DNA of 64,000 bases from Nitrosopumilaceae archaeon (GCA_965209085.1 OZ242376.1:1280001-1344000), one strand, 5' to 3'; shown: positions 21,219 to 37,383, counted from the first letter of the stretch. Numbers and translations are program-made. Notes: generated from the letters alone by a model not told the origin.

Positions 21219-22486
21219 AACGATTTTTGCATTAAAAATGATAGGATCGGAGGGTTCATTTTATCATTGCCCTCCATGCGGTGCCAAATTCTGATGGCGT
21301 CGCGTACCCTATTGCAGAGTGTACTTGGTTCTGATTGTAATCCTCAAAGGCGTATGATATTGCAGCCTCTGCGTCCTGGAACGTCTCAAAGTCGCGCGGC
21401 CAGACATACTCTTTCTTGAGACTCTTGTGGAAAGATTCCACATGAGCATTTTGCTCTGGTGTATGATAGTGGATGAATTCTTACCTCACACCGTATGCTT
21501 TTACAGTCTTGCCAAATTGCGCTGAAATATACTGGGAGCCGTTGTCGGTTCTTAAAACAAGCTTTGAGCAGTCCGGTTTTTTGGATGCCAAAGCTTCAGT
21601 TAATGCTGCAATTGCACCGTCGGTAATAGCTCTTGACTCAAACGCATATCCGACCCATTCGCGGGTAAATGCATCAAGGATGTTAAACAGATAACATCAT
21701 CTGTCCTGACCGCACCAAATGTACGTCATGTTAGCTTGCCAGAGCTGATCAGGTCCTGCAAGTTTTGGTTGTTTTCTGGAGCGTATGATCTCTTTTTTGG
21801 GTTTTGCAGGCACATTCTAGCCCAAATAATGATATATTTTCTTCACTTTTTTGCAGTTTACAGGTTTACCTGTAATGCGAGATATGATGGCGACCATTCT
21901 TCGTGTTCCATATGTGAGTCTGTTTTGAGCAACCTACGGTACCATCTTTGATATTTCCTTGTCGATTTGGATGTGCGTGGTTTTTTGATGGCATACAGTC
22001 TCTTGTTGGACGCTCCAGCATAGCGTGCGGATTTGCGAAGACTCAAACCTTGCTCCTGCATGAGTGTAACAGATTTCATTTTATATTCCACAGTAACGTT
22101 TTTTTTTAAAATATCATTGACGATGGTCAGATCACCAATGAGCTTTTTGAGGGATTCATTTTCACTTGTAAGCGTCTTGACTGCATTGTCTCTGGGCTTG
22201 CCTGAAAGAGCAGCTTTGCAGGATTCAATGAATGATTCACTCCAACGACTGAACGTTATCTGACTGATGTTGTGTCTACGGCACAGCTCTGCGGGGGTAA
22301 TGCGTGTGTTTATTGACTCCATGATGATACGTACTTTTTCATCTGGCGCACGATGGGGGTTTTTCATTGACAAATCCACTCCCGAGGGGGTAAAATTTGT
22401 AATACTTGAAGTGCTCTCCTTTTATGGGGTCCACTCCAAGATCAAGTCACATAAACTATATATCGTGTTTACCAATTAACTATCAT

Positions 22487-22687
22487 ATGAGTTCAGATAC
22501 TTATAATGTACCTGGAACCTGCCATAACTGCAGTGGCAAAAATTATGTTGTGTTGAAAAAAGGCATACCTGCAAATAGTAAAGATTCCGTAATAGCATCA
22601 GAGGAAATGGAATGTACTACTTGCGGGTGTATAGGTTTTATTTTGGCCAGCGCAATTTCGAATCGTGATAACGCGATGGATCTATGA
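22487..22687 (+). CDS. Small Zn-ribbon protein
   Basis: MSSDTYNVPGTCHNC...CTTCGC. Confidence 0.55.
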   Translation: MSSDTYNVPGTCHNCSGKNYVVLKKGIPANSKDSVIASEEMECTTCGCIGFILASAISNRDNAMDL

Positions 22688-22717
22688 CCGCGTGTTGTTA
22701 ATCCGCCTAGCACTGGT

Positions 22718-22796
22718 ACGAGGTCACATCATGCCTAGAATTTACGCAATAAATGAAGATGTAGGCACAAAATAGCACGAGGTGCTGACCTCATAC
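22718..22796. repeat. Structured ~80-nt repeat, copy 1
   Basis: 74/79 identical to 32642-32720; nested inverted repeats GAGGTCA..TGACCTC, TGCCTA..TAGGCA. Confidence 0.9.
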
Positions 22797-22843
22797 TAGC
22801 AGTGATCTAAAAAAGTTATATACGCATATAGAAATTATGTTGC

Positions 22844-23329
22844 ATGGGAGTTAGTTCGCTACTTATTGCAGATTATCTATTATCTAAAGAAACACCATTA
22901 ACCCCAATGCAGGTAAACAAACTAGTTTACATATCCCATGGCTATTCATTAGCTGTACTTGATAAAAGCTTGATTGACGATAGAATTGAAGCTTGGAAAT
23001 ATGGTCCAGTCATACCAATTGTATATTATAAATTCAAACAATATGGTGGAGATATAATAGACCGGCTAGGTTATTGCAAAACATCCTTATCGGATAATGT
23101 ATTACTTACAGAACGTAAAAAATTCTTTACGATCGCAATTGATCTTACGAAAAAAAATATTGTAGATTTCGTATTTTCTAAATATAGCAATTATCGAGGA
23201 ACACAATTATCTGTAATCACTCATGAGAAAAATACACCGTGGGCAGAATGCTATAATGAGAATGAACTGTTTACAGAAATTCCAAATGACATCATAAAAA
23301 AACACTACAAGGAGTTAATACATGACTAA
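22844..23329 (+). CDS. Panacea/SocA (DUF4065) antitoxin-like protein
   Basis: LTPMQVNKLVYISHG, IEAWKYGPV, THEKNTPW. Confidence 0.9.
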   Translation: MGVSSLLIADYLLSKETPLTPMQVNKLVYISHGYSLAVLDKSLIDDRIEAWKYGPVIPIVYYKFKQYGGDIIDRLGYCKTSLSDNVLLTERKKFFTIAIDLTKKNIVDFVFSKYSNYRGTQLSVITHEKNTPWAECYNENELFTEIPNDIIKKHYKELIHD

Positions 23330-23747
23330 GAAAAAGTCCGAAAATGATGAATTATTAGAAAAGATGTATTTGGAACATAAGAAAATATTATTTAGAAAAC
23401 ATAGCACTACCCATGGCGAAAAAATCAAAAAGCTTCTTATAGTTAAAAAACCTAAAAAAAATGACGAGGATGATTTTTTTAAAAATAAAGATATGCGTGA
23501 AACTTTAAACAAACATTTTTTAAAAAATCTTCCGAAATTTTGGCATGAAGAAAATATAAAATATATGCTAAAAACATTACGTTATATTACTACATATGCA
23601 TATATTGGCACGTTTATTATTTTGATCTTTACAGGATTTAAATTCTATGGTTTTAATATGCCTGAAAATGTATTAATAGTATTAATAGCATCCATTGCAA
23701 CTTCAAAAATAACTCAATCGATAACATCAGCTATAAAATCAAAATAA
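23322..23747 (+). CDS. Membrane protein (2 C-terminal TM); candidate partner of the Panacea protein
   Basis: Overlaps the Panacea gene; charged N-terminus and two hydrophobic helices. Confidence 0.7.
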   Translation: MTKKKSENDELLEKMYLEHKKILFRKHSTTHGEKIKKLLIVKKPKKNDEDDFFKNKDMRETLNKHFLKNLPKFWHEENIKYMLKTLRYITTYAYIGTFIILIFTGFKFYGFNMPENVLIVLIASIATSKITQSITSAIKSK

Positions 23748-23753
23748 CGCAAT

Positions 23754-24155
23754 TCATTTTTTAAATCTTTTAGATTTCCTATACACCTTAAAAAATCCCA
23801 AACCTGCCTTTGCAAATTTCATCGTCTTCAACAAACGCAATAAACGAAATACCCTGAACAATCGAAAGAACGGTACGAGTAACACGATATCAAACCAATG
23901 CTTTCTCAAGAACACTTTCCAATTTTCACTTGCACGGTATTTCAAAAATACATCAAATGCAAATATAACCCAAATTATCCAGGACAATATGTCCCAATAA
24001 TGTGCCAATGTATCCGGCAACGGGAGAATGGGATATTCAAAGCCGAACAGGTCGCTGTCAAAAGCTAAAAGACCTACTAGGAAAAATATAACCCAACCGA
24101 TTGTTACTATGTTGACCGATTGGATCCATTTCTCAGATTCAGAGTTTAATTTCAA
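23754..24155 (-). CDS. Voltage-sensor/ion-transport-like membrane protein lacking a pore domain
   Basis: FLRKHWFDIVLLVPFFRLFRVFRLLRLLK, an S3-S4-like Arg-periodic helix. Confidence 0.75.
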   Translation of the reverse strand: MKLNSESEKWIQSVNIVTIGWVIFFLVGLLAFDSDLFGFEYPILPLPDTLAHYWDILSWIIWVIFAFDVFLKYRASENWKVFLRKHWFDIVLLVPFFRLFRVFRLLRLLKTMKFAKAGLGFFKVYRKSKRFKK

Positions 24156-24190
24156 AATATAAATTTAATGGCAATTGCATAAATTTATGT

Positions 24191-24427
24191 TTATTTGTAA
24201 GTATGGCGTTTATTTTCCACATCAGGAAATGGTAAATTTGGATGTTTTGATTTTTCAGAAATCGCCAAAAACGTGATTGGTGTTAAGAAATAACGTGTGT
24301 TGGTAATAGTTGTTGATGAAGGCGATTCGCCTATCTTAACATGTCCAATATTTTCAAGTTGTAGCATATATCCTTTCAAAGTACTATTATCAACCGTCGT
24401 GTTACTGTTATCATGAAGATGTTTCAA
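24191..24427 (-). CDS. Small putative winged-helix protein
   Basis: 78-aa ORF with wHTH-like pattern (LKGYMLQLENIGHVKI...RYFLT); start uncertain. Confidence 0.35.
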   Translation of the reverse strand: MKHLHDNSNTTVDNSTLKGYMLQLENIGHVKIGESPSSTTITNTRYFLTPITFLAISEKSKHPNLPFPDVENKRHTYK

Positions 24428-24628
24428 GATTTCAGCGTCAGTTATGCCGTATGGTCATTTGGTATACAGTATATTTAATATTTGAAAATGAATTGATATC
24501 ATACTCTGGTAATTCTTAGGTCTTTATGACTAATTTCGACCTGCTGTTAATTTAGGGTGTTTTTCTGTCAACTTGGGGAGGTAAGATATACATAATTTCC
24601 ACGCCTAAAAATTCAAACTGCGATCAGT

Positions 24629-24859
24629 TTAGTTGTGCATATAATGATGTGCTATGTATTCAGAACGCACGTCAAATATCTGTGGAGGGATGCAATATCC
24701 ACAAACCCAAAATTTCCGGTCTGTTGGGACAACTTCATCAACATCGATGTTTTTTGGTATCTCAGTACCACTAAGATCTTCTTCAAGGAAAACTTCCCTA
24801 GGATCGCATGATGTATCTGCAATGTGTGTTTTCCTCTCATCTCCAGCAAAATCAATCAA
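24629..24859 (-). CDS. Small hypothetical protein with C2H2-like tail
   Basis: CGYC...HHYMH; may be the frameshifted tail of the upstream AN1 gene. Confidence 0.4.
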   Translation of the reverse strand: MIDFAGDERKTHIADTSCDPREVFLEEDLSGTEIPKNIDVDEVVPTDRKFWVCGYCIPPQIFDVRSEYIAHHYMHN

Positions 24860-24904
24860 TGATCCTGATTTTGAAACATATCTGCATGCATCACATACTA
24901 GACT

Positions 24905-25210
24905 TCATGCATAATGGGATAAATTCCCAATTTTTACGAATAAAAATGACCGATTTGAACGATTATGCATACGGTCTACTACAATGTATCTGCCATAGCT
25001 AATATTCAGATCCAAGCGCCTCAACCAGGTTTTTCTTAGAAATTTCACGGGCTCTATTTTACTACATTCATGATTTTCCAACTGAATGTGATCTACACAA
25101 AAATCTCGCCTACAAAATTTACATGCAAAATCGTCCGGAAATGCCACACCAATTCCACAAAATCCACATTTTTTCATGGCGTTTAACCTGTACCCCATCT
25201 TATCATGCAA
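24905..25210 (-). CDS. AN1-type zinc finger protein
   Basis: CGFC...FACKFCRRDFCVDHIQLENHEC. Confidence 0.8.
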   Translation of the reverse strand: MHDKMGYRLNAMKKCGFCGIGVAFPDDFACKFCRRDFCVDHIQLENHECSKIEPVKFLRKTWLRRLDLNISYGRYIVVDRMHNRSNRSFLFVKIGNLSHYA

Positions 25211-26193
25211 TTATATCGTTCAATGCCTTCATTATGGGTATCATTCATTCTTTCATATTTATCATATAAGATGAGATATTCGGAATATTGTGCAGTGTCG
25301 TGTATTGTAGATGGATATCTGTCAAGCTCACGACCTAGTCTATCTAGTTCTCTAAACATCTTGCGTAATTTTTCATCCAATGTTTTCATGCCTGCAGATT
25401 CATAAGATTCCACGTCGCTTGAAGGTATGTCATAACCTAAATTATCAAATGGGAATTCATAATCATCGCCGTGCATCAAATGATTTTGATTTCGATTATG
25501 TTCAATACCTAAATGATGTCCAAATTCATGCTTTACAATATCTATCATTGATTCTGGGTTATACTCGTATCGGTTCCCATTACAATCATAATCGCCAGTA
25601 TCGACCAAGATCTCGCTCACACCCCAAAAATCTGATTCAGTGTGACTATCACATCCATCACTACAGTATAGGCCAGCATAATCCACTGATCCTAATTCCT
25701 TGAATGTGAATATGAAATCATAATCTGAATAATCGGTCACTTCTCGAAATTCCATGCCTGGATTCAGATGGGACCATTCATTCAAACCAATATCTGCAAT
25801 ATGCCGGTATTCGATAAAACCTCCACGTATTGCATATTTGTACACTTGATTGTATGGTGCATCATTTGATTCAGTATAATCTGTAACAGGTACCTTTGTT
25901 GGTTCGATTTCCACATGTGAAGTATCTACATCATCCAATGGTGGCATTACATGTGTGGGCCGCCACATACTTTCGTCAGTTGCAAGCCAGTATCCAACTA
26001 TGAGCATTAACGCCACAACGATGACAATCCCCGTGATCTTGGACTCTCGCCCATACACAATATCTTTTTCACTTTTGAATTTGTATGACTCTCCAGTTCT
26101 CATCAACGTATGACCGCATTTCTCACAACAAACATACCCTTCCTCAGAATATCTATAATCGTGGGAGCAACGACCTAGCATTGGGAATTCCAT
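25183..26193 (-). CDS. Membrane-anchored matrixin-like zinc metalloprotease
   Basis: HEFGHHLGIEH zinc motif plus Met-turn (HLM); N-terminal Zn-ribbon and one TM helix; C-terminal coiled coil. Confidence 0.85.
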   Translation of the reverse strand: MEFPMLGRCSHDYRYSEEGYVCCEKCGHTLMRTGESYKFKSEKDIVYGRESKITGIVIVVALMLIVGYWLATDESMWRPTHVMPPLDDVDTSHVEIEPTKVPVTDYTESNDAPYNQVYKYAIRGGFIEYRHIADIGLNEWSHLNPGMEFREVTDYSDYDFIFTFKELGSVDYAGLYCSDGCDSHTESDFWGVSEILVDTGDYDCNGNRYEYNPESMIDIVKHEFGHHLGIEHNRNQNHLMHGDDYEFPFDNLGYDIPSSDVESYESAGMKTLDEKLRKMFRELDRLGRELDRYPSTIHDTAQYSEYLILYDKYERMNDTHNEGIERYNCMIRWGTG

Positions 26194-26543
26194 GATTTAG
26201 TCCAGTAATATAACAGATACACGTATCCTACAAATATGGATAATGTAAATATTATCACACCCCATTCATGAAATTCTGAATTTATGTGTGCTCCACGTAA
26301 TGTTAATTGTATTATAATATACAATAATATGCCTGTTCCAATCGAATATAGTAAACCTAGTCTTAATTTATGAACTCGGTAATAAAGGTAAAATAAAACA
26401 ACAGGTTCAATAAATATTAATAATGTTGATGCATCAGATATGACCGGACCAAGCATATTGGAAGTTATGAAATATACAATTACTATCACAGCTAATGGGA
26501 TCATCTGTGTATACATTTTTACAGGAGTTTTTTGCAGAGGCAT
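26175..26543 (-). CDS. Membrane protein (4 TM)
   Basis: Four hydrophobic segments; overlaps the protease gene. Confidence 0.7.
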   Translation of the reverse strand: MPLQKTPVKMYTQMIPLAVIVIVYFITSNMLGPVISDASTLLIFIEPVVLFYLYYRVHKLRLGLLYSIGTGILLYIIIQLTLRGAHINSEFHEWGVIIFTLSIFVGYVYLLYYWTKSWNSQC

Positions 26544-26546
26544 GTT

Positions 26547-26717
26547 CTATCCTCGCATCCATCTACGCCATGCCCTACTCGTATACGCCATAATTACAAA
26601 CAGCGATGGGAAAAAAAGCAACCCCGAGATCTGAGTGTTACCTGGATTGGCAAACAGCATGGCCCCAAAAAACATGCCAATTATAGCCAATGAGCATATG
26701 ATCACACCCGTACGCAT
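26547..26717 (-). CDS. Small membrane protein (56 aa)
   Basis: Hand translation MRTGVIICSLAIIGMFFGAMLF...AWRRWMRG; first gene of a putative operon. Confidence 0.5.
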   Translation of the reverse strand: MRTGVIICSLAIIGMFFGAMLFANPGNTQISGLLFFPSLFVIMAYTSRAWRRWMRG

Positions 26718-26800
26718 ATTTCACTATAATAATGTAGTATTATATGAATATTCGTGATAATCTTGGCATGGATTAAAACTCGTGTTATACTTGGCAGAGC

Positions 26801-26959
26801 ATGGCAAAAATCATGGGCTCAACAAAAATCACGACCAGATATCAGATCACGCTGCCTGAAGAAGTTCGGCTCAGTATGGGACTAGAGATTGGGCAGTTGT
26901 TGGCATTCGTGCAGAACAAGTCCGGACGCATAGAACTGGTTACAGAAGTGGATACATGA
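26801..26959 (+). CDS. AbrB/MazE-type DNA-binding protein (52 aa)
   Basis: Hand translation MAKIMGSTKITTRYQITLPEEVRLSMGLEIGQLLAF. Confidence 0.8.
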   Translation: MAKIMGSTKITTRYQITLPEEVRLSMGLEIGQLLAFVQNKSGRIELVTEVDT

Positions 26960-27121
26960 TGACCTCGCGGCAAAAACCATGTCGTATGCGTGTGATTGGC
27001 GGTCCTAAGAGGATGTACCTCATTGAAAATCATGTAGGATAATTCGAGAATACAGTGGAAACAATCTAAGACCATTATTTGATAAACTAAAATGCTAATA
27101 TAAGGAAAAAACTAACTGTAC

Positions 27122-28021
27122 TTGGAAAATTGTATGGTTAAAACAGATATTCATAAAATTGGAAATGTTAAAATGGAATCGGATGTGGAATTACAGAAAT
27201 TTTCAAATGAAAAAAATGTGGTATTATTGGCATTCATTAATTCATATGCTCCAAAAAAAATTAATACTGTTAGATCCGACGCACCCGAAATAAACATCGC
27301 AGATGAAATTGCAATTGAAAATGTTTTAGATACCATAAAACAAAAAATGGGAACAATGCCAGATGAAGCATATTTATTAGTTAACACGACTGGTGGAGGG
27401 TTAAACTCATCATTCAAAATAGCAAAGGCGATTAGAAAAAAATTTAAAAAAATAACTGTTTTTGTTCCACATGTAGCTGCTAGTGGAGGAACGTTATTGG
27501 CAATGACGGGAAATACAATCCGAATGGGGATGATGAGTCAATTAAGTCCTCTCGATCCTCAAATAGAATACAAAGAATATGGTCGTGTATCTGCCAATTG
27601 TATGAATAGATCTAAAAGACGATACGACGATGAACTTGCAACGCTACATGAAGATGATATAGATTTTCCAGACAGGCACATGATAGAATCACTTGATCCA
27701 ATATTGTATGAAATATTTAACGATGCACTTGTTATGGCAGAAACGTACATTGACTTCATTTTAGAAAAATCCAATTATACAAAACCTGTACGTGAATCTT
27801 TGTGCAATAGTTTCATCTATGGTTTCCCTGGTCATGATTTTATGATAGACAAAAATTTAGCAAAAATACTTGGGCTTCATATTGAAACTGAAGATCAGAA
27901 TATTGAAGAATGGAATTTGATGAGAGACTGGTTTGGAAAATATATTTCAAAAGAAACAGACATGCATTTTATTCGATACTGTATTCCAAAAAAATTAGAT
28001 AATGTAAATATGGGAAAATAA
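27122..28021 (+). CDS. SDH/ClpP-fold serine protease
   Basis: LVNTTGG, VFVPHVAASGGTLLAM, SQLSPLDPQI, H.F.I motifs. Confidence 0.85.
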   Translation: MENCMVKTDIHKIGNVKMESDVELQKFSNEKNVVLLAFINSYAPKKINTVRSDAPEINIADEIAIENVLDTIKQKMGTMPDEAYLLVNTTGGGLNSSFKIAKAIRKKFKKITVFVPHVAASGGTLLAMTGNTIRMGMMSQLSPLDPQIEYKEYGRVSANCMNRSKRRYDDELATLHEDDIDFPDRHMIESLDPILYEIFNDALVMAETYIDFILEKSNYTKPVRESLCNSFIYGFPGHDFMIDKNLAKILGLHIETEDQNIEEWNLMRDWFGKYISKETDMHFIRYCIPKKLDNVNMGK

Positions 28022-28197
28022 TTACGTAAATTATTGATCACTAATGATTGTGTTTTTTGGATTATGAGCTCGTTTTGCCATGTGTTCCTTAACACGATCA
28101 TATGTCATTGTAATCTCATGGGAATTTTCCATACGCTAATTGTGATATTACCACATAAATATTTAGCGGCATGAATATATAATGGCTGATCGCAGGG

Positions 28198-28338
28198 TCA
28201 GGATTCATTGGCCCATTTTAATAGAGCTTCTTCAACTGCTATTGACAAATTACCTTTCTTCATGCCTTTCTTCCGGGCAACTGCATTTCTGAATTTCTGA
28301 TCTACATCTTCAGATATTTTCATGTTCAACTGACCCAT
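28198..28338 (-). CDS. Ribbon-helix-helix protein (46 aa)
   Basis: Hand translation MGQLNMKISEDVDQKFRNAVARKKGMKKGNLSIAVEEALLKW; divergent from the transposase. Confidence 0.8.
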   Translation of the reverse strand: MGQLNMKISEDVDQKFRNAVARKKGMKKGNLSIAVEEALLKWANES

Positions 28339-28422
28339 ATTGATATATGTAATAATCCATGTATATATATCTACATTAAGTAGTTAAGTAGATTTATATG
28401 ATATACCACTACATAACTACTT

Positions 28423-30048
28423 ATGAATAATAGTATGGTAAATCAGATAGAAGCACCAACAGAGATCAACCGCAAAGTTCATGGTGTAGATATTGCAAGC
28501 AGATCGGAAGATGTACGTCGCATCGAAGACGATTATTGGCAAGTACGATCTCAAACATTGCGGTATGAGACATGGTACAATTTGGTTCATACAGAAAATG
28601 GCTGGATATGTGATTGCCCTGACATGCAACTCAACAAGGCAATATGCAAGCACTCTCATGCCATGAAGTTTTTCATGAAAATTTATGATGCACGTAACGG
28701 TATGACACAGGTTCCAGATGAGATATCCCATGAATGCAAAGATGTTCGGATAATTGCCAAAAATCATTATGCTGTAGAATCAAGCACTTCTGACAAATCA
28801 TATCGGGTGGAAAAATTGGCAAAGGCGGACGTCTGGGTCTGTGAATGCAGGGATTTTCATCGTAAACTTCGAACAAATCCCAAAAAACCCTGCAAGCATA
28901 TTCGTGCATGTATGAATATTGCAAACTCTCCAATAAAACCCACAAAAATCATGACCACGAGTATACCTCCAATATGCCCTAGATGTAATTCAACTTCCAT
29001 AATAAAATCTGGATTCCGTACAATCAAAAATAAAATAAAACGCCAAAGATATTTTTGCCAGCAATGCAAGCGTAAATTCATTCTAGGTGAAAACGGTTTT
29101 TCCAAAGTCAGCTCTGATCCGAAAATAATTACAGAATCTTTGAATCTGATAATGTCCGGGGTATCGTATAGGGATATATCTAGGCACATTAAGGTGTCTC
29201 ATAACATAGATATCAGTCATGTTGCCATCTGCAAATGGGTGCAAAAATACACTCAAATCATGAAAACATATGTGGAAAAAACATACCCAAAAATCGGTCC
29301 GGATGTATGGTCTTTGGATGAGATGGTGTTGAATGTCAAGGCTACCAAGAAAGGCAGCAAGGGGTTCAGCGTCTGGCTTTGGACCATAATTGATCCGCAA
29401 ACCCGTTACATCATATCCACGGAAGTTTCAAAGAAACGAGAAATAGATGATGCTAGAAGTATTATCGCCAAGGGGAAAAACAACACATCTGTAAATCCCT
29501 CGTATGTGGTCACAGATTCGTTACAATCCTATGCGGGGGCAATACGCAAAGAGTTGGATAATCGACGTACTGCACATATTAAAACAAAGGCAATCAAAAA
29601 CGAATTTGCTAACAGGCCTGTAGAGCGTGCGCATAATGAAATGAGGGAGAAATTATCTGCAAGAAGAGGGTTGGGAAATGACAAATCATCTCAAAATTTT
29701 ATGGAACTGTTTCAGATCCACCACAACCTGATCCGGCCGCACATGGGTCTTAATGGTAAAACGCCAGGAGAAGTGGCAGGAATTAGTCCGGATTTGGGAG
29801 AAAACAAGTACCGTACTTTGATTCAAAATGCATCAACAAAAGCCACTTTTGCCTCTGCGCTTAAGAATCGTATCCAGTATGTCAATATCGATAATAACGG
29901 AGATCGGATTCGTGTAACGCAGAAAGGCTGGCTAGATAAGAAGGTCTGGAGAGAGATTAATGATATTTTGAGCCTTTATGGGTTTGAGTGGGATTCTAAT
30001 GATGGGCGAGGGTTTTGGATAAAAGACGAATTGTGTAGAGCCCATTAA
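28423..30048 (+). CDS. IS6-like DDE transposase with two SWIM Zn fingers, IS1-type Zn ribbon, HTH and a C-terminal extension
   Basis: CDCPD..CKH and CECRD..CKH; CPRC..CQQC; WSLDE, VVTDS, NRPVER, HNLIRPH...GKTP. Confidence 0.9.
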   Translation: MNNSMVNQIEAPTEINRKVHGVDIASRSEDVRRIEDDYWQVRSQTLRYETWYNLVHTENGWICDCPDMQLNKAICKHSHAMKFFMKIYDARNGMTQVPDEISHECKDVRIIAKNHYAVESSTSDKSYRVEKLAKADVWVCECRDFHRKLRTNPKKPCKHIRACMNIANSPIKPTKIMTTSIPPICPRCNSTSIIKSGFRTIKNKIKRQRYFCQQCKRKFILGENGFSKVSSDPKIITESLNLIMSGVSYRDISRHIKVSHNIDISHVAICKWVQKYTQIMKTYVEKTYPKIGPDVWSLDEMVLNVKATKKGSKGFSVWLWTIIDPQTRYIISTEVSKKREIDDARSIIAKGKNNTSVNPSYVVTDSLQSYAGAIRKELDNRRTAHIKTKAIKNEFANRPVERAHNEMREKLSARRGLGNDKSSQNFMELFQIHHNLIRPHMGLNGKTPGEVAGISPDLGENKYRTLIQNASTKATFASALKNRIQYVNIDNNGDRIRVTQKGWLDKKVWREINDILSLYGFEWDSNDGRGFWIKDELCRAH

Positions 30049-30081
30049 ACATTTTTATGGGTATTTTACATATGTCAACTA

Positions 30082-30360
30082 TTGGTATATTACATAGTGT
30101 CATTTGATTTGGAAGATCCAAACAACAATGATTATGAATCCATATATTCACGCATGAATAATAAATTTCCAAAGTCATGTAAAATATTGTCTACAACATG
30201 CTTGATTAAATCAAATGATAACATTGACACAATAAGAGATTGGTTTCAAATGTGTACAGATGATGAAAATAATATTTCTGTATTTGTCGCAGAGTGGGAA
30301 GGTTATTCAGCTTGGATTACTGAAACTGCAAGAAAAGCGATAGAAGAAATATTAAACTAA
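30082..30360 (+). CDS. Small ferredoxin-like (Cas2/VapD-like) protein
   Basis: YIVSFDL...DY..IY pattern resembling the Cas2-like N-terminus; no CRISPR context. Confidence 0.55.
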   Translation: MVYYIVSFDLEDPNNNDYESIYSRMNNKFPKSCKILSTTCLIKSNDNIDTIRDWFQMCTDDENNISVFVAEWEGYSAWITETARKAIEEILN

Positions 30361-30388
30361 CATGCATATAAAATTATTATTACAAAAT

Positions 30389-30631
30389 TCATATTTTTGC
30401 CATCTTGATGATTCTTGGGCACAATCGTAGCAACAGTATAAAAATAGGTATGGCGAAAACTATGCTCACGGTGTTAATGGCGTCAATGTATTGCGTGTTA
30501 TTTATTATTGTTTCAAATAATTTTCCAAATATGCCTTTATCGGTTATCTGATGAATTAATGCTGTTATTAATATCAAAACTAGTGCATAACATACGCTGT
30601 TCTTCTCGCTTATCTTTGGAGAATCAAACAA
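30389..30631 (-). CDS. Small membrane protein (2 TM)
   Basis: Two hydrophobic helices; third gene of a cargo operon. Confidence 0.55.
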   Translation of the reverse strand: MFDSPKISEKNSVCYALVLILITALIHQITDKGIFGKLFETIINNTQYIDAINTVSIVFAIPIFILLLRLCPRIIKMAKI

Positions 30632-30638
30632 AACTCAT

Positions 30639-31181
30639 TCAACTATGTCTTTTCCTTAAAAATTGGAATAACATCGTAGTCGAATAACCTGCTAATATGG
30701 TTGCGGCAATATAATTTAAAGGGCTATCGAACATTAGATATGCTAGTAGGGATAACAAGTATGATGAACCAAAAAATAATATTCTTGCAAGACGAGGAGA
30801 TTTTGTAACTGAGGATGAATGTTTTTTACTAATATTTTGAGCCATGATTTCCTTAAAAATTGGGTTTGTGGAATATACTGATTTTACACTTGCAGTGTTT
30901 TTTGAAGATGGTTTCTCAACAGGTTCAAATTCTACAATCTGTTCTTCTTTTCCATTATTTTTTATGGATTTAAAATGAATAATTATTACTTCTCCTTTAT
31001 GATGTACTTTATATACATATTTTTTTGAATCATTTGTATTGTTGATTGTGTTTAGAAGTGATTCATGTGGCACATTTTTTAATTCTGTATCTGCAAATAC
31101 AATTTTAGTTCGTTTTATATTTTGAGCCTTATCTATGTCTTCATCTATGATTTCTTTTAGAATAACATTGTTTTGAGTCAT
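30639..31181 (-). CDS. Hypothetical protein with two C-terminal TM helices
   Basis: Start overlaps the upstream stop; C-terminal hydrophobic pair. Confidence 0.65.
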   Translation of the reverse strand: MTQNNVILKEIIDEDIDKAQNIKRTKIVFADTELKNVPHESLLNTINNTNDSKKYVYKVHHKGEVIIIHFKSIKNNGKEEQIVEFEPVEKPSSKNTASVKSVYSTNPIFKEIMAQNISKKHSSSVTKSPRLARILFFGSSYLLSLLAYLMFDSPLNYIAATILAGYSTTMLFQFLRKRHS

Positions 31182-31690
31182 TATACCATATCATGCTTTT
31201 CTAATGTTATTAATACTTTATTACAAGTTTCATGGGTAAATGCCAATTTTTTTCCACAAATATCCAAAAAAGCATGTCGTTTCTCCAACCCAATACCATG
31301 TATCAAATAATGAATAGATGCAGCAATTTCAAGATTGACTGGATTATAATCTAATGAATTCAAAAATTGAGAAAATCTATCATAACATTTTTGATCATTT
31401 TCGCTCAATGTGATTAAAGGTTCTGTAATGTTGGATGAAGATATTATATCGTGTATATATACTCCATCGTGTGTAAGTCTTTTCGAATACGGTCCACATG
31501 GGAACCACTTAAACACATATCCTAAATTTATTCCACATTCTTGTAGAAAGTATATCCCTTTCTGAAATACTGTTCTGGATTCGACCGAGCTTAAATTCAA
31601 TATTTTTGAGTGATGCGCGAGAGACCCCATTACTAATACTTTGGTACCATTATCTGAATCTTCATATTTTATCAACTCAGCAGGTAGCAT
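31181..31690 (-). CDS. YwgA/Panacea-like winged-helix protein
   Basis: R..FQKGIYFLQ..G..LGY.F.W...GPYS..L and LEIAASI motifs. Confidence 0.7.
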   Translation of the reverse strand: MLPAELIKYEDSDNGTKVLVMGSLAHHSKILNLSSVESRTVFQKGIYFLQECGINLGYVFKWFPCGPYSKRLTHDGVYIHDIISSSNITEPLITLSENDQKCYDRFSQFLNSLDYNPVNLEIAASIHYLIHGIGLEKRHAFLDICGKKLAFTHETCNKVLITLEKHDMV

Positions 31691-32411
31691 ACAGTGTTGT
31701 CACATTTATGACAGAATATAAAGATTAGTAACTGTCTAGAATTTTGAAATGATTTGATCATATGATCGAGTATTTTCCACCGTGATCTGGCGTGGTCCAT
31801 TCCAGAACACGCTTTTAGTAAAGTTAGACATGCCGCAGGATTATGGTCCGACTAAACTGATCGTAGTTTGAATTTCTAGGCGCGAAGCCATCCAAATTCT
31901 AACACCCGAATTTTACAACCTAGTCAAATACGTGAAAACATTCTAAAATTTACCAGAGTAGTTTGCATCCATAGATGATCAAACCAGTTATTTCCTTGCT
32001 TATGATGTGACAGATACAAAATTCCAACATAACGCAGATCACCTATTGGAACTGACAAAAAAAGTCATATGTAAATCTCCAAAACATTTCACTACTGACG
32101 GACTTCCGGCATACGCCAAATCATCTAAACGTGTATTCGGTAAAGATACACAATATCATGCACACATTCACTTGCGTAGACCGCAACAATAACAAAATGG
32201 AACGGTTTAATGGAACCTTTAGAGATCGTGAATTGGTATTTAGAGGTTTAAAAAAATCAGATACGCCTTTGATCGGTGGCCATCAAGCATTTTACAATTA
32301 CACTAAAAAACACATAGGTCTTGGCGGCAAAACTCTAGCAGAGGCTTCAAACATTAAAGTTGCAGGATTAAATAAATGACAAACTTTGATACAAAATGCT
32401 AGTTTGCATAC

Positions 32412-32588
32412 TTATGAACGTTTTTCCCAAATGTGTGAAGTTTTTTTCTGAAATTCATCAAACTGTAATGAAGTTTTATTAAAAATATCCCGTGCTTCTT
32501 CTTTTGTCATTTTATCATGTTCACATAACCAATCTAAAAGTGCCACCATTGGAGTATATTGATTGTTTAATGTATCGCCTTTGACCAT
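32412..32588 (-). CDS. Small hypothetical cargo protein (58 aa)
   Basis: Hand translation MVKGDTLNNQYTPMVALLDWLCEHDKMTKEEARDIF. Confidence 0.45.
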   Translation of the reverse strand: MVKGDTLNNQYTPMVALLDWLCEHDKMTKEEARDIFNKTSLQFDEFQKKTSHIWEKRS

Positions 32589-32641
32589 ATTGAATCTTGT
32601 AATATATTTTATGAATAAATATGTTTTTAGTCAATCCAGGC

Positions 32642-32720
32642 ACGAGGTCACATCATGCCTAGAATTTACACAATAAATGAATATGTAGGCATAAAATAGC
32701 ATGAGGTGCTGACCTCGTAC
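32642..32720. repeat. Structured ~80-nt repeat, copy 2
   Basis: Direct repeat of 22718-22796. Confidence 0.9.
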
Positions 32721-32992
32721 CAATCCTGAGAAGATCCATATTTCACGCCTGACGCCTAAGTGTTGATAACTTTACAGAATCTAAAATTCTACATACTGTG
32801 ATCAGAATTGAGACCATATCCCTAAGTTAACAGAAAAACACCCTAAATTAACAGCAGGTTGGAAATCGTGGAAAAGCCCTAAGAATTACCAGAGTATGAT
32901 ATCAGGTTCTGTAAACTTATCGGTGCATAGGCGTGGATATGGATCTTCTCTGAATTGATTGTTTTATATGTTGGAATATGAGTTAAAAATTA

Positions 32993-33210
32993 TGAGTGAT
33001 TTATTGGATATTGATCGGATAGTTCCAGAACTGCCAGAAGGTTCACGTATGGATATGGTAGAGTGGGCAAATATGTTAGATGTTAAATTGCGAACATTAG
33101 ATGGTCGTACAAATAGTGCATTTCAGTACCGAGATAAAAGATATAACCAATTACAAGAATTGATTTCTACCATAGAAAAAGAAATTGATGATTTGAAAAA
33201 AAGACCATAA
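32993..33210 (+). CDS. Small coiled-coil protein 1
   Basis: MSDLLDID..EWAN..; C-terminal heptads; start approximate. Confidence 0.65.
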
Positions 33211-33221
33211 TAAAATTTATC

Positions 33222-33259
33222 AAAAAGTGATCATTTTTTGAGTAAGATCAATAAAGGGG
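33222..33259 (+). promoter_or_regulatory. Duplicated promoter/operator, copy 1
   Basis: 35/38 identical to 33560-33597; 18 nt before ATG; TATA-like AATAAA. Confidence 0.7.
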
Positions 33260-33277
33260 CATATTTTAAAATACATT

Positions 33278-33514
33278 ATGAGTTTAGCAGCTACTGTCCC
33301 AAATGAAGCACCAAATTGGTTTAGAGAGTGGGCAAAGGGTATGGATAGAGATACAATATTTGGAACTGCGATATTAGAACAATCGGACTATACATTGGAA
33401 AGTGTAAAGAGGGATTTTGGAAATTTTAATACACGAATGGATAAAATGGATAAAGATATTTTAGAGATAAAAGATGATATAAAAACTATAAAGAAATTGT
33501 TGACTAATAAATAA
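33278..33514 (+). CDS. Small coiled-coil protein 2
   Basis: APNWFREWAK; C-terminal heptads. Confidence 0.75.
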   Translation: MSLAATVPNEAPNWFREWAKGMDRDTIFGTAILEQSDYTLESVKRDFGNFNTRMDKMDKDILEIKDDIKTIKKLLTNK

Positions 33515-33559
33515 TTTATCGGTTTTATTCAGGTTCTGCAAATCATCTATGGATTGACA

Positions 33560-33597
33560 AAAAAGTGATCTTTTGTTGAGTTAGATCAATAAAGGGG
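33560..33597 (+). promoter_or_regulatory. Duplicated promoter/operator, copy 2
   Basis: Matches copy 1; same 18-nt spacing to ATG 33616. Confidence 0.7.
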
Positions 33598-33615
33598 TAG
33601 ATTGCATGATGTAGT

Positions 33616-33906
33616 ATGAGTAGATTAGATGAAATAAAATCTGTAAAAGATGTTACTGAACGTGATATACAAGAGTGGTGTGGCGATTTACGAAAACATG
33701 ATGATAAGGCGTTTAAATATATTGGTTGGTTGTTTTGGGTTCATCACGATTTTCTGAAATCGGGGTTTGAAGAAACGAAAGTTGCTATTAAAGAAATGAA
33801 AGATGATATTGAAAAAGTGAATGATAAATTGGTTAGTATGGATTCAAGGTTTGACAGCATGGATTCAAAATTGGATTCCATAAATGAAAAATTAGAAAAG
33901 TTGTAA
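33616..33906 (+). CDS. Small coiled-coil protein 3
   Basis: IQEWCG; MDSRFDSMDSKLDS heptad repeats. Confidence 0.75.
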   Translation: MSRLDEIKSVKDVTERDIQEWCGDLRKHDDKAFKYIGWLFWVHHDFLKSGFEETKVAIKEMKDDIEKVNDKLVSMDSRFDSMDSKLDSINEKLEKL

Positions 33907-33911
33907 TGCAA

Positions 33912-35027
33912 TTATTCATACGTATGCAAACTAGCATTTTGTATCAAAGTTTGCCATTTGTTTAATCCAGCAACCTTAATGTTTGAAGCTTCAGCAGGCG
34001 TTTTGCCACCAAGTCCTATGTGTTTTTTAGTGTAATTGTAAAATGCTTGATAGCCACCGATCAAAGGGGTATCGGATTTTTTCAAACCTCTAAATGCCAA
34101 TTCACGATCTCTGAATGTACCGTTAAAGCGTTCCATTTTATTATTATTACGATCTTTGCGTAAATGGATATGTGAATGATGTTCCGTATCTTTACCAAAT
34201 ACACGTTTAGATGATTTGGCGTATGCAGGAAGTCCGTCAGTTGTAAAATGTTTAGGCGATTTGCCTATGGCATTTTTTGTGAGCTCTAATAGACGATCTG
34301 CATTATGTTGGAATTTTGTATCTGCCATGTCATAAGCAAGGAAATAACGGGTTTGATCATCTATGGAAGCAAAAAGATATTTTTTCTGACCTGATACTTT
34401 GAGCCATACTTCATCAGCTCTAACCCATGTACGATCAGCGGTTCTTGGAATGATCTCATTTAGGTATTTTTCAACCATACGAGAATATTTGGCAATCCAT
34501 TTGTAAACTGCCATGTGGGATATTTTAATTCCCATCATCTCATAATGGTTGGCAATATCACGGACTGACATACCCGTGAAATACATTTGCATATCTCCAG
34601 TAATAGTAGAGGGTAAAACACGGGTATTTTCAAAGCCAAAGTTTGTTGTAAAAATTTTGGTACATTCTTGGCATTGATACTTTTGAAGTTTGCCGTGCCT
34701 ATTGGTTCTATAACCACGTTTACGTAAATTACCCGAACTGCAATATTTGCATAGGTTGAGCTTTGATCGTTCCATGATTTTAAATTCATTATTGGCATAT
34801 CCACGATTTTGTTTTATTATCTTTATAATGACATGAATATGTTTACAGTCGGATTTGCGGTATTGATGATCAGGGCATTCGCATACAAGACCGTTTCCAG
34901 TCCTAGAGACCGTATAGTATTTGTCGGGCGTGGACATGGATTTTACTTTGAATGTGTGGGTATCGGTTTGAGTTATTGCATTTGCCGTTTCTAGTATTTG
35001 GTTTGCTTGTTGTTTGCGTGTATTCAT
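33912..35027 (-). CDS. IS6-like DDE transposase with one SWIM finger and an IS1-type Zn ribbon
   Basis: CECPD..CKH; CKYC..CQEC; RADE, TTDG, NNKMERFNGT, YNYTKKH..GKTPAE. Confidence 0.92.
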   Translation of the reverse strand: MNTRKQQANQILETANAITQTDTHTFKVKSMSTPDKYYTVSRTGNGLVCECPDHQYRKSDCKHIHVIIKIIKQNRGYANNEFKIMERSKLNLCKYCSSGNLRKRGYRTNRHGKLQKYQCQECTKIFTTNFGFENTRVLPSTITGDMQMYFTGMSVRDIANHYEMMGIKISHMAVYKWIAKYSRMVEKYLNEIIPRTADRTWVRADEVWLKVSGQKKYLFASIDDQTRYFLAYDMADTKFQHNADRLLELTKNAIGKSPKHFTTDGLPAYAKSSKRVFGKDTEHHSHIHLRKDRNNNKMERFNGTFRDRELAFRGLKKSDTPLIGGYQAFYNYTKKHIGLGGKTPAEASNIKVAGLNKWQTLIQNASLHTYE

Positions 35028-35042
35028 ACAGTTGGTATTAAG

Positions 35043-35100
35043 AGTACGCTTAATATATGTATCTGTTAATAGTACGCTTAATTAAGAGATCGCTTAATTA
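35043..35100. promoter_or_regulatory. Direct repeats AGTACGCTTAAT (x2 plus partial) between transposase and regulator
   Basis: 35043-35054, 35071-35082 and partial 35091-35100. Confidence 0.6.
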
Positions 35101-35127
35101 ATATGGTAATAGGTTATTGCACCGTGT

Positions 35128-35298
35128 ATGACACGGTGGAAAAAAGATGAGACGGAATTTACAGTCAGCTTATCACATGACGGTGGGCTTGGAATGATTG
35201 CACGCATACCTAAACCAATTAGGGAAGAGTTGGGCAATCCTACCAAGATTAAATTTCTAAAGTATAAGGGTAAAATATTAGTAGATTCTGGAGATTAA
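35128..35298 (+). CDS. AbrB-like DNA-binding protein (56 aa)
   Basis: Hand translation MTRWKKDETEFTVSLSHDGGLGMIARIPKPIREELGNPTKIKF. Confidence 0.75.
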   Translation: MTRWKKDETEFTVSLSHDGGLGMIARIPKPIREELGNPTKIKFLKYKGKILVDSGD

Positions 35299-35500
35299 AA
35301 CGGTTCATAGAATTTTGCGATCACGGATAAGGCGTGTGCAATATTCAAGACCATGACTGCGATTTCTAAATATTCCCGATTTTACCTGTTTGTCAATCCA
35401 TCTTAAGATTTCAGCTTCTATGGATATGGCGATCTTATGCTTCACATGGTACAGTATGACTAGGTATGATTAAAATACGGTATGATAAAGTCATACTTTT

Positions 35501-35878
35501 GTGAGTGCAGTTAAGGGATTTCTAGCAGGGGGGTTTACAGTATTTGTATTTTTTATCATAGTATTGACAGGTTTTGCACTAGATTCAGATATTGAATATA
35601 CGAATGATTCAGGTATTGCCCATACGAATGAATTAAACTATACGGATAGAGCAGTACTGATAAAATTAGCTCAAAACTGTTATGGCAGAGATACTGATTG
35701 CTATGTAAAAAATTTGGGGTATGGGTTGGATAATAATGATAAATACATAATAGAATCATGGACAAATACTTGTCAGACATTTAGCAAATATCAATATGAT
35801 CGTTGCTGGAGTATAGATAGCGAGGATGCTGGCATAATTACTAGCATACGAAATATGCACTTAAAAGCGGAAAAATGA
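35501..35878 (+). CDS. Secreted or membrane-anchored Cys-containing cargo protein
   Basis: N-terminal TM helix; four Cys; inside the TIRs. Confidence 0.6.
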   Translation: MSAVKGFLAGGFTVFVFFIIVLTGFALDSDIEYTNDSGIAHTNELNYTDRAVLIKLAQNCYGRDTDCYVKNLGYGLDNNDKYIIESWTNTCQTFSKYQYDRCWSIDSEDAGIITSIRNMHLKAEK

Positions 35879-35987
35879 CGATTTTTGGTTGATTTGGTTG
35901 ATCGCTATTTATGGTCAAATATGCACCGATAAGTTTACAGAACCAAGAATCGCACAGCTTATATACACAAGTACCGTACTTTACGGT

Positions 35988-36095
35988 ATGTTACGGTGCG
36001 AATACTGTACAAGAATCTTTGGCGCGACCCACAACGGGTTTGCAGAAAAGACGTTCCATGAGTTATTACATGGTCCAAATGTGGTAAACAGCTAA
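35988..36095 (+). CDS. 35-aa Zn-finger-like microprotein
   Basis: MLRCEYC...FHELLH. Confidence 0.45.
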   Translation: MLRCEYCTRIFGATHNGFAEKTFHELLHGPNVVNS

Positions 36096-36141
36096 AAGCT
36101 AGCCACATACCAATATTTTTTTAAATCATTACATTTCCTAT

Positions 36142-37383
36142 ATGGTATTGACAGTCAAAAAGAAAAAATCAAAAAAAGCATCCGTAAAACGATCGGCTAG
36201 GCCTGTAAAAACAAAAGCATCCAAGCCTGTAAAATCAAAGACTGCTAGACCGACAAGGCCTGTAAAAACAAATGCTTCAAGATCGGCAAATACAGACAAG
36301 AGTATGACTTTGATCATAGAATCGACAAAAACGGTCTCAAAGGAGATAAAGACAATCTCAAAGATCTTTACGGACAATCAAAAAATACTGGAATCCATGA
36401 AAACCATGATAACCACCCTCTCTGGAACCATGCAGCACATTGACAGGCATTCCAAACAAATTATGCTGTTGGAAAATGAATCTCAAAAAATTCAGGCGGA
36501 CCTGCGCCAGGTAAATCAAAAGGCAGAGTCTGTGAAACCATCAGGCGCAATTAATGGCAATATTGAAAAAAGACTGGTCGCAATTGAAAACGAATCAAAT
36601 TTTGTACAGGTAAAGGAAATAATGTCAGAATGTCTTAAAATTACAAAAACTAGCGGACAAACTTTGGATAAAATATCAGATTATCTAAATAGTGCATCCA
36701 ATACAAACGCTGACAATATTGAATCAAAACTCGACGCCAATGCCAAGATGCTTGATGATGTCAGAAAACATCTTTACGATCATGTGCAGGATGGTGCGGA
36801 TAAAAATATCAAAAATGAAATCTCTGAAAAAATATCGACAATTTCTCGCGAGATTGCAGGATTACGCGAGCAGATACGCAGCGTTTCAGATGCGCAAATA
36901 ACTGACGAGCTTACAGACCACATGAGTGCCATATCCTCAAAAGCGGAGGTTCTCATGGGCATTCCGGCAGAATTACTAGAGATGCAGTCCCGTCTGAATT
37001 CCATAGAAGGAAAAATTGCAGAGAAAAAAGATTCCAGTGAAAAACAGCCATCAATTACGTTGCTAGAATATCAGGTAAAAATTCGCATGAATTCAGAATC
37101 AAAGTACGGGGATACAGACGAGCTGCAATCCATGATAGATCAGACCTCCGAGGTACTCCAAACAATTGAAAAAAACAAAAGCACCGGTATTTCAAAATGG
37201 GGCGTTTCACGCATTTTAGAGTGCGCCGACAGATGGGAGTTGCGATTCTCAGATGTACTAGCAATGATGAAAGATACGCTTGGTGCAGACATACTAAAGG
37301 AAGCAATTCGGATAAAACAGGTCAAAGACGTATACGGTGTGCGCGCAGTAGAGGATACAAAATCCCTTTTGGGTTTAGACTAG
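36142..37383 (+). CDS. Coiled-coil protein with Lys-rich N-terminus
   Basis: 413-aa ORF; N-terminal RPVK repeats; long heptad region. Confidence 0.75.
   Translation: MVLTVKKKKSKKASVKRSARPVKTKASKPVKSKTARPTRPVKTNASRSANTDKSMTLIIESTKTVSKEIKTISKIFTDNQKILESMKTMITTLSGTMQHIDRHSKQIMLLENESQKIQADLRQVNQKAESVKPSGAINGNIEKRLVAIENESNFVQVKEIMSECLKITKTSGQTLDKISDYLNSASNTNADNIESKLDANAKMLDDVRKHLYDHVQDGADKNIKNEISEKISTISREIAGLREQIRSVSDAQITDELTDHMSAISSKAEVLMGIPAELLEMQSRLNSIEGKIAEKKDSSEKQPSITLLEYQVKIRMNSESKYGDTDELQSMIDQTSEVLQTIEKNKSTGISKWGVSRILECADRWELRFSDVLAMMKDTLGADILKEAIRIKQVKDVYGVRAVEDTKSLLGLD

Follow-up and report, generated by a model that had tools for sequence, protein, structure and literature searches.

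The window analysed here is a stretch of 64,000 nucleotides (nt) from the genome of a Nitrosopumilaceae archaeon (GCA_965209085.1, OZ242376.1:1280001-1344000), and its positions 24502-32896 very probably represent a unit DNA transposon, one of a family in ammonia-oxidising archaea whose transposase is an enlarged and distant relative of the IS6 enzymes. The element is 8,395 bp long, or about 8.4 kb when the flanking 8-mers are included (24494-32904), and contains about 13 open reading frames (ORFs). The assignment is drawn from sequence comparison, with the structure of the ends, the 8-bp repeat that flanks them, the encoded transposase and a set of related elements in other genomes as the principal evidence.

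The initial annotation of this DNA had described a perfect 19-bp terminal inverted repeat (TIR) at 24502-24520 and 32878-32896 and a second inverted block at 24539-24578 and 32820-32859, and both were recovered, with 19 of 19 and 38 of 40 positions matching, respectively. In a repeat search the two blocks merge into a single inverted repeat of 86 nt (24494-24579 and 32819-32904) that is 88% complementary. Each end is about 80 bp long and holds three direct copies of a site of about 14 bp: the three units that had been placed in the right end are found there at 32820, 32841 and 32877/8, and their counterparts in the left end lie at 24506-24520, 24544-24557 and 24565-24578. The left end (24502-24580, plus strand) combines the 19-bp TIR with three sites of the form CTG(G/T)TNAAYT..AGGG, a three-unit layout that recurs in the ends of relatives. 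It is followed by an inner extension (24581-24633, plus strand), here called L-type, of which the block 24602-24633 is repeated in inverted orientation at 31851-31882 with 94% identity over 32 nt; the same extension is present in a solo end, D, elsewhere in this genome, which is 82% identical to the left end over 150 bp. The outer right end (32819-32896, minus strand) has its sites at 32820-32833, 32841-32854 and 32878-32892, the TIR occupying 32878-32896. Immediately outside lies TGATATCA, on both sides as had been stated (24494-24501 and 32897-32904), and the right copy doubles as the 8-bp spacer between the element and the tip of the adjoining insertion sequence (IS). There is one transposase gene, the ends are non-coding repeats of about 80 bp and no pair of ISs flanks the element, which agrees with its earlier description as non-composite. 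Both junctions are spanned by independent assemblies, and the G+C content of 35.5%, against 41.2% in the genome, is as expected for DNA acquired from elsewhere.

Since TGATATCA is its own reverse complement, the window copy by itself cannot discriminate between a target duplication and a palindromic outward extension of the repeat, which would make a 27-bp TIR and leave this copy without a duplication; the initial annotation had itself named the case that TGATATCA is a constant part of the TIR. The distinction is made by other copies of the ends. Eight of these were found by BLAST in the same genome, where there are the solo ends B (778445), C (785578) and D (1533266) and two small non-autonomous derivatives with two ends each, E (449149-449361, 213 bp) and F (1204660-1204868, 209 bp). 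In these copies the similarity starts exactly at the TACTCTG tip, which corresponds to window position 24502, the flanks differ, and TGATATCA is absent outside all eight. Moreover, non-palindromic and mutually unrelated 8-bp direct repeats occupy the same position in 8 of 11 relatives. On these two grounds, TGATATCA is a target duplication and not part of the repeat, and the TIR extension is hardly credible.

The relatives were sought in 200 other genomes of the family, 75 of which gave matches at E ≤ 1e-20, mostly to the shorter type of the neighbouring element IS-B (see below); the unpublished genomes G076, G091 and G092, on which no other result rests, are part of this count. Homologues that are 43-58% identical and reach the C-terminal domain were found at 17 places in 11 genomes, and 15 of these places in 10 genomes, the two in G076 being left out, were examined and correspond to 14 distinct elements. 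Inverted end pairs flank the transposase gene in 11 of the 14, in line with the earlier expectation that such ends bracket such enzymes elsewhere, and the expected duplications are likewise present: perfect repeats occur in G038c (TCAAAAAT), G038d (CTAGATTT), G176b (AAAAAGTG), G079 (CTAAACTG), G093 (CAAAATAC), G001 (GGCACGCG), G049a (CGATTTAT) and G049b (ACATGAAG), which brings the number of elements with an 8-bp duplication, the one in the window included, to 9 of 12. The relatives measure 2,444-13,411 bp. All elements have one end layout in common, a terminal unit at about 5-20 from the tip, followed further in by one subterminal unit or two (about 43-58 and 64-77), and the units co-vary from element to element, being GTAATT/GTTAATT in the window, GTTAC in all three units of G093 and TGCAT..CGCCGGATTTCA twice in G001. 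Because the units change together within an element, we read them as predicted binding sites of the cognate enzyme. The tips across the family are TAC, GAC, CAC or TGC, with a GG start in G049b only, and an ACTGTT/CTGGT core is present. An all-against-all comparison of the cargo showed the transposase to be the only gene that all elements share, some of them having related restriction-modification genes in common. As a separate observation, a tRNA-Thr(GGT) gene is located 7 bp away from the right duplication of G038c (L027 13816-13904, G038).

The transposase of the window element (28423-30048, plus strand) has 541 amino acids (aa) and is encoded by a single-copy gene in the 1.69-Mb genome. 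It had been described as a SWIM-DDE enzyme, which Pfam and the alignment support: PF13610 (DDE_Tnp_IS240) scores 57.6 bits (cut-off 27) and SWIM 22.1 (cut-off 19.6). From the N-terminus, the protein has two SWIM fingers of the type CxCxnCxH (SWIM1: C63, C65, C75 and H77; SWIM2: C140, C142, C157 and H159), a zinc ribbon (C185, C188, C212 and C215), a helix-turn-helix (HTH), a DDE core (D299, D365, E401 and R408) and a C-terminal domain at about residues 475 to 541. The best NCBIfam profile is that of IS6 (NF033587, E 2.4e-30), which is covered over its whole length, and the second is IS1 (E 1.5e-19), with an IS1/IS1595-type zinc-binding domain scoring above its own cut-off; the nearest annotated relatives in plasmid records are Clostridium IS6/ISCpe7 transposases, with 27% identity over residues 183-455. 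In an alignment of 16 transposases, including the 371-aa enzyme of IS-B, the residues D299, D365, E401 and R408, the SWIM2 ligands and the cysteines of the zinc ribbon are invariant. SWIM1 is an additional finger present in the 541-aa form and in full-length relatives in other assemblies, 92% and 82% identical to it, and the C-terminal domain is common to the 541-aa protein and its relatives of about 445 aa and is lacking in the 371-aa enzyme. Scans of genome-contig and metagenome-contig collections returned no relative of the 541-aa protein, and a search of PDB sequences gave nothing better than E 0.3.

Inside the element lies a third, degenerate end in right-end orientation (31851-31960, minus strand; tip TTACCAGAGTA at 31950-31960), which has a terminal unit, a first subterminal unit and the L-type inner block known from 24602-24633, the third unit being missing. 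It is followed by IS-B' (31962-32781, plus strand), recognised by DNA similarity and inverted repeats as a truncated relative of IS-B, whose frameshifted 3' transposase part (31962-32418) is 88% identical at the DNA level to 33915-34373 of IS-B; its right terminus, ...TTTACAGAATC, ends at 32781 and is separated by 37 bases from the end now in use. IS-B itself (32905-35944, minus strand) lies outside the 8.4-kb element, whose insertion site it marks, and is 3,040 bp long, with perfect 24-bp TIRs (GGTTCTGTAAACTTATCGGTGCAT, GG tips), the gene for a 371-aa SWIM-DDE transposase (33912-35027) and three small ORFs. The 8-bp duplication accompanies the outer end pair and not the internal third end, and the most economical history is that an older element of 7.46 kb was seated inside an IS-B copy and that a later move by way of the distal end carried the IS fragment along. 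G038c offers a parallel: its duplication, TCAAAAAT, goes with a different, outer left end at 8865 rather than with the inner left end at 9009. The use of a more distant end, by which the enzyme would enclose new DNA, is proposed here as a new and concrete route of cargo gain.

It could be argued from this patchwork that the ends are unrelated remnants, either solo ends or halves of small non-autonomous copies, which bracket an island built by ISs and recombination, and that the 8.4 kb never moved as a unit. The genome does contain many solo or rearranged ends (B, C and D), the third internal end and the broken IS lie inside the element, and IS-B has no duplication of its own, its flanks being TGATATCA and AAGAATCG. 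In addition, the right side aligns to the one same-genus genome available, which has about 71-75% DNA identity, only from 35952 onward, directly at the outer end of IS-B, and everything to the left of 35952 is missing there, which by this comparison is a variable island; on the left flank (22800-24501) only short or weak matches were found among 30 relatives. However, the outermost tips form a perfect 19-bp pair with identical 8-mers immediately outside them, for which the probability of a chance match at both exact junctions is about 1 in 10,000 or less, and the cognate transposase lies between the ends, as it does in 11 related elements. We therefore regard a mere assembly of remnants as very improbable.

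The interpretation as a unit transposon of an IS6-related family is not free of difficulties, and the following observations weigh against it. The NF033587 score of 105.8 bits lies below the IS6 cut-off of 125 applied by NCBI, so that the earlier label "IS6-derived" is fair, IS6 being the best profile, while membership of IS6 is not. The tips begin with TA, GA or CA and not with the GG that is typical of IS6 and found in IS-B. The structure is poorly modelled by AlphaFold, with a mean predicted local distance difference test (pLDDT) of 58 and DDE strands below 50, and Foldseek searches with this poor model gave generic DDE matches only (ISCth4 transposase and retroviral integrases, with template modelling scores of 0.15-0.36), to which we attach little importance. 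Among the relatives, three loci (G013, G194 and G028) yielded one end or none, and 3 of the 12 elements have no duplication, namely G038a in both its copies, G176a and G003. In the case of G038a, which is present as two inverted copies of 4,976 bp that are 99.98% identical, all pairings of the four flanks were compared by eye and none match. In the genome under study, ends B, C and F_L have one flank in common, GTTGTT, and a 91% identical paralogue (L002 3662-3967) of the 306-bp left flank of the element (24196-24501) also abuts a degenerate end of the family, in the same position and with TATTATCA in place of TGATATCA. This junction could be due to common ancestry, site preference or recombination, and the shared flanks, together with the paralogue, indicate that some of the end copies have spread by segmental duplication and recombination, not by transposition. 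Finally, no empty site was found in 30 relatives, in the same-genus genome or in the contigs of three sequencing runs.

A genuine transposon may also have become an immobile relic, kept as a neutral island or for useful cargo. The copy in the window is single and contains a decayed IS, three inserted small repeats and the degenerate internal end, which adds to the points just listed, and there is no sign of polymorphism in the three sequencing runs: their contigs, which probably include the source culture, were compared with 22500-37500, and no joint of 24501 to 32897 was present, the joints listed involving dispersed repeats. On the other side, the 541-aa reading frame is uninterrupted and every catalytic residue and zinc ligand is conserved, the TIR matches at 19 of 19 and the duplication at 8 of 8 positions, and the 92% and 82% identical full-length relatives occur in other assemblies. 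We hold immobility to be a serious possibility, if somewhat short of an even one, and place the chance that this copy can still move at about one half.

Some further observations concern the end copies. At a distance of 1.9 kb from solo end D (150 bp) there is a 58-bp remnant, 90% identical, of the C-terminal transposase-coding sequence (L001 7314-7371 and 9117-9266; 1531314-1533266 of this genome), and the two together have the appearance of a second element copy in decay. L004 was considered as an empty site for end B and rejected, since it has the same flank with a 1,438-bp IS inserted before a small element of its own. This IS, with TIRs beginning TAGGTCATGTCACAAC, occurs in this genome at L002 3968-5405 and 9133-10570 and at L004 1216-2652; the copy in L004 has AGTTGTTT on both sides and is inserted exactly at the tip of small element F. 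A repeat of about 940 bp at 21501-22439 in the window has at least 12 copies in the genome, with 76-92% identity, and a truncated copy of it abuts the same small element.

Transposition would begin with the binding of the zinc modules and the HTH of the transposase to the three sites of each end, which would pair the ends. The 3' ends, nicked by D299, D365 and E401, would then be joined by these residues to target phosphates with a spacing of 8 bp, and repair of this 8-bp stagger would leave the target duplication. By analogy with IS6, we hold, with even confidence, that movement is likelier to be a copy-in by way of a cointegrate resolved by host recombination than cut-and-paste. The hints at replication are indirect, and consist of the three elements of 12 without duplication and the two inverted, identical copies in G038.

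Insertion would favour the 8 bp beside a resident IS6-type tip. In the window the tip of IS-B, at 32905, directly abuts the right copy of the duplication. The duplication of G079 has other family ends directly outside it on both sides. In G093 the tip of the transposase-bearing element meets that of a 2,349-bp non-autonomous family element, N, and there are three occurrences of CAAAATAC. The neighbour of G001 is an IS-B-like remnant, whose tip it abuts, while a second family end is found 7-8 bp away from G049a and the insertion of G049b is inside such an end. In total, contact with another IS6-type tip is seen in 6 of the 10 insertions whose duplications are clear. With just 97 occurrences of GGTTCTGT in 1.69 Mb, the chance of exact adjacency is of the order of 1 in 10,000 for each insertion. 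Small element E, too, is 8 bp from a solo GGTTCTGT-like tip; the match is just 14 nt, and the duplication of E itself is visible only when a 2-bp deletion at the junction is allowed. From these arrangements, a preference for the 8 bp beside a resident IS6-type tip is probably a true targeting property, though we would lean only modestly to this side. The neighbour N (L034 6475-8823, G093) has perfect 90-bp TIRs and the duplication CAAAATAC, and encodes an aldo/keto reductase and an NAD-dependent epimerase, a cargo that is metabolic rather than defence-related. A second copy of IS-B is present at G000:C1:570889-575328, with a perfect 8-bp duplication, TGTGATAA, and is interrupted by an insertion of about 1.4 kb.

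In other IS families, abutted ends with a spacer of the length of the target duplication are known from circle or tandem junctions. The arrangements of two ends around 8 bp could therefore be relics of such junctions and not the result of targeting, the element moving by cut-and-paste or through a circular intermediate, and the clean duplications in 9 of 12 elements would fit this. The abutting ends, however, belong to different elements with different sequences, and the three occurrences of the same 8-mer in G093 fit two successive staggered insertions. Furthermore, the inverted copies in G038 and the absence of a duplication in 3 of 12 elements fit the replicative intramolecular events described for IS26 in the sections of the IS6 family review drawn on here (PMC7986276). 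We consider this alternative unlikely, and retain targeted insertion as the preferred reading of the abutted ends.

The claim of more than 10 passenger genes was justified, with about 12 further ORFs of at least 56 aa inside the element. On the minus strand are an ORF of 101 aa with an AN1-type zinc finger (24905-25210; PF01428, 31.8 bits, cut-off 27.9), one of 336 aa with an M10/matrixin-like metallopeptidase domain (25183-26193) and three small ORFs of 122, 56 and 77 aa without a family match (26175-27075). The metalloprotease that had been named among the cargo is thereby recovered as a weak match (PF00413, 25.1 bits, cut-off 24). The Clp-fold protease that had been named is encoded on the plus strand (27122-28021) as a ClpP-fold serine protease of the SDH type with 299 aa (PF01972, 57.2 bits), its score on NF047768 being 78.7 bits, below the cut-off of 250. 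Downstream of the transposase gene, 30082-31690 contains ORFs of 92 aa (plus strand) and 80 aa (minus strand) and an overlapping pair of 180 and 169 aa (minus strand), and neither the pair nor its neighbours in this interval have a Pfam match. The 169-aa protein weakly resembles the C-terminal part of DarG (PADLOC, E 2.2e-6; NCBIfam, 20.7 bits, cut-off 250), and PADLOC gave two weak matches only in the cargo of the window element.

Two of the cargo labels were not substantiated, since the internal ORFs gave no match to Panacea or Cas2 when E values as high as 5 were allowed. The sole Panacea (SocA-like) protein, with 76.8 bits, is encoded outside the element at 22844-23329 and shows no similarity to the internal pair of 169 and 180 aa; with an overlapping 141-aa ORF that follows it (23322-23747) it resembles a toxin-antitoxin pair, and this outside pair is probably the source of the Panacea module earlier placed within the element.

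Three small dispersed repeats lie within the element, at 24899-24981, 31728-31788 and 32644-32720. The first is a palindromic hairpin repeat resembling a miniature inverted-repeat transposable element (MITE), with dozens of copies of 75-90 bp in the genome and a predicted fold of -24.3 kcal/mol (z -6.3). The second, a short repeat of another family, has about 10 copies at 90-95% identity and no significant fold, and the third is again a palindromic MITE-like hairpin, with a copy of the same family at 22716-22796. In the genome there are two families of such palindromic repeats of 75-90 bp that form long hairpins (z -6.3 and -4.4) at dozens of sites, and the tips of the hairpin repeats (..TTCATGCAT.. 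/ ..ATGCATGAGGTC) resemble those of the insertion of about 1.4 kb in the second IS-B copy. Judged by these tips, the palindromic repeats may be miniature derivatives of yet another IS. No Rfam match was obtained at E up to 0.1 between 20000 and 38000 of the window. There is no tRNA gene between 15000 and 45000 and no tyrosine or serine recombinase domain among the element ORFs (Pfam), and the 8.4-kb element therefore does not qualify as an integrative element.

In the relatives, restriction-modification genes are present in 8 of 11 elements and restriction-modification or other defence genes in 9 of 11. G049a carries a complete type I system, G079 a type ISP gene and a PLD-SNF2 helicase, G176a a type III-like system, and G038d and G176b have HaeIII-type and MvaI/BcnI-type nucleases with methylases; other restriction-modification genes are found in G038a, G038c and G003. 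The cargo of G049b includes a CAP12/Pycsar-type protein with a TIR domain (here the protein domain, not the repeat), and that of G093 and G001 consists of unassigned genes. The 11.5-kb element of G079 has inverted arms of about 2 kb (L032 6149-8159 and 15670-17704) with blocks that are 90-100% identical; these arms duplicate part of the type ISP restriction gene and may be the product of an internal rearrangement.

Among known transposons with cargo, those of the Tn3 family have transposases of about 1000 aa and TIRs of 38 bp, make 5-bp duplications and possess both a resolvase and a res site. The family described here is similar to Tn3 in its single transposase, its non-composite structure with cargo, a probably replicative movement and the loss of flanking repeats after intramolecular events, but no resolvase or Tn3-type transposase was found in the element ORFs (Pfam). 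With Tn7- and Mu-like elements it shares several predicted binding-type repeats in each long end and a cargo mostly of defence genes; it differs from them in the absence of a TnsB/MuA-type transposase or TnsC/MuB-type ATPase from the element ORFs searched, in a duplication of 8 bp instead of 5 bp, and in having no target-selector gene. SWIM fingers are linked to MuDR-type transposases, and a SWIM finger of the form CxCxnCxH N-terminal to the DDE core is indeed a likeness to Mutator and Mutator-like elements and to IS256, as is, for IS256, the top fold match of the poor model, the ISCth4 transposase of that family. The corresponding profiles, however, score far below IS6, with 22.3 bits for IS256 (cut-off 150) and 17 bits for Mutator (cut-off 21).

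The closest likeness is to IS6 and IS26, in the best transposase profile, the DDE triad followed by K/R (R408), the 8-bp duplication, the small non-autonomous derivatives and the ACTGTT core of the ends, which compares with the IS6 consensus cTGTt; to the ISCpe7-like members there is the 27% identity across the zinc ribbon, HTH and DDE core. In the sections of the family review considered here, IS6 elements form a highly uniform family of about 0.8 kb, with lengths of 0.7-0.9 kb (maximum 1.76 kb), TIRs of 14-20 bp with GG tips and cTGTt/caaa motifs, 8-bp repeats and one member reported to carry a passenger gene, ISDsp3; long clostridial clades, h and i, have an N-terminal zinc finger and are ISCpe7-like, and replicative intramolecular events lose the flanking repeats (Varani et al. 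2021, PMC7986276). In contrast to these single-ORF elements, the present family measures 2.4-13.4 kb with a cargo of several genes, has ends of about 80 bp with three sites, and encodes an enzyme that has a conserved C-terminal domain besides its one or two SWIM fingers. The stacking beside other ends recalls arrays of IS26, in which an incoming copy settles right against a related element already in place and the elements pile up. According to the same sections, targeted integration beside a resident IS26 is conservative, leaves no duplication and requires identical ends (PMC7986276), whereas here the neighbours differ in sequence and an 8-bp duplication is made anew, as the three copies of the 8-mer in G093 illustrate.

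We found no description of this family in the full-text literature, in a search that was not exhaustive and with an existing entry in an IS database remaining conceivable. In the sections consulted of a survey of thaumarchaeal mobile elements, ISs consist of one or two genes and passenger-carrying DNA transposons are stated to be undetected in archaea (PMC6563490), the word "passenger" does not occur in the sections consulted of a 2026 survey of archaeal ISs (PMC13343696), and PMC3379541 deals with other ISs. The family is best called an enlarged variant of the IS6 kind, with multi-site ends, cargo and a tendency to stack beside other ends.

It is tempting to go further and to see in these elements a separate family, sister to IS6, that is a main vehicle of restriction-modification and other defence genes in ammonia-oxidising archaea, stacks tip to tip, gains cargo through distal ends and moves cassettes in trans; we offer this joint reading tentatively, and would put it somewhat below an even chance. 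If it were true, each newcomer would insert into the 8 bp beside a resident IS6-type tip and defence islands would be built in this way, non-autonomous cassettes, of which the 2.3-kb element of G093 with its aldo-keto reductase and epimerase is an example, would be mobilised in trans, and the protease and two-gene modules of the window would be candidate new defence systems. The cargo without annotation in the window, G093 and G001 would be a source of candidates for new defence functions. The family would also provide a testable model of how a small IS-type enzyme may gain long multi-site ends, and of how defence islands may grow by end-adjacent stacking. Ammonia-oxidising archaea are globally abundant and gene flow among them is little understood; if the reading presented here holds, they have unit transposons of their own that ferry whole defence systems.

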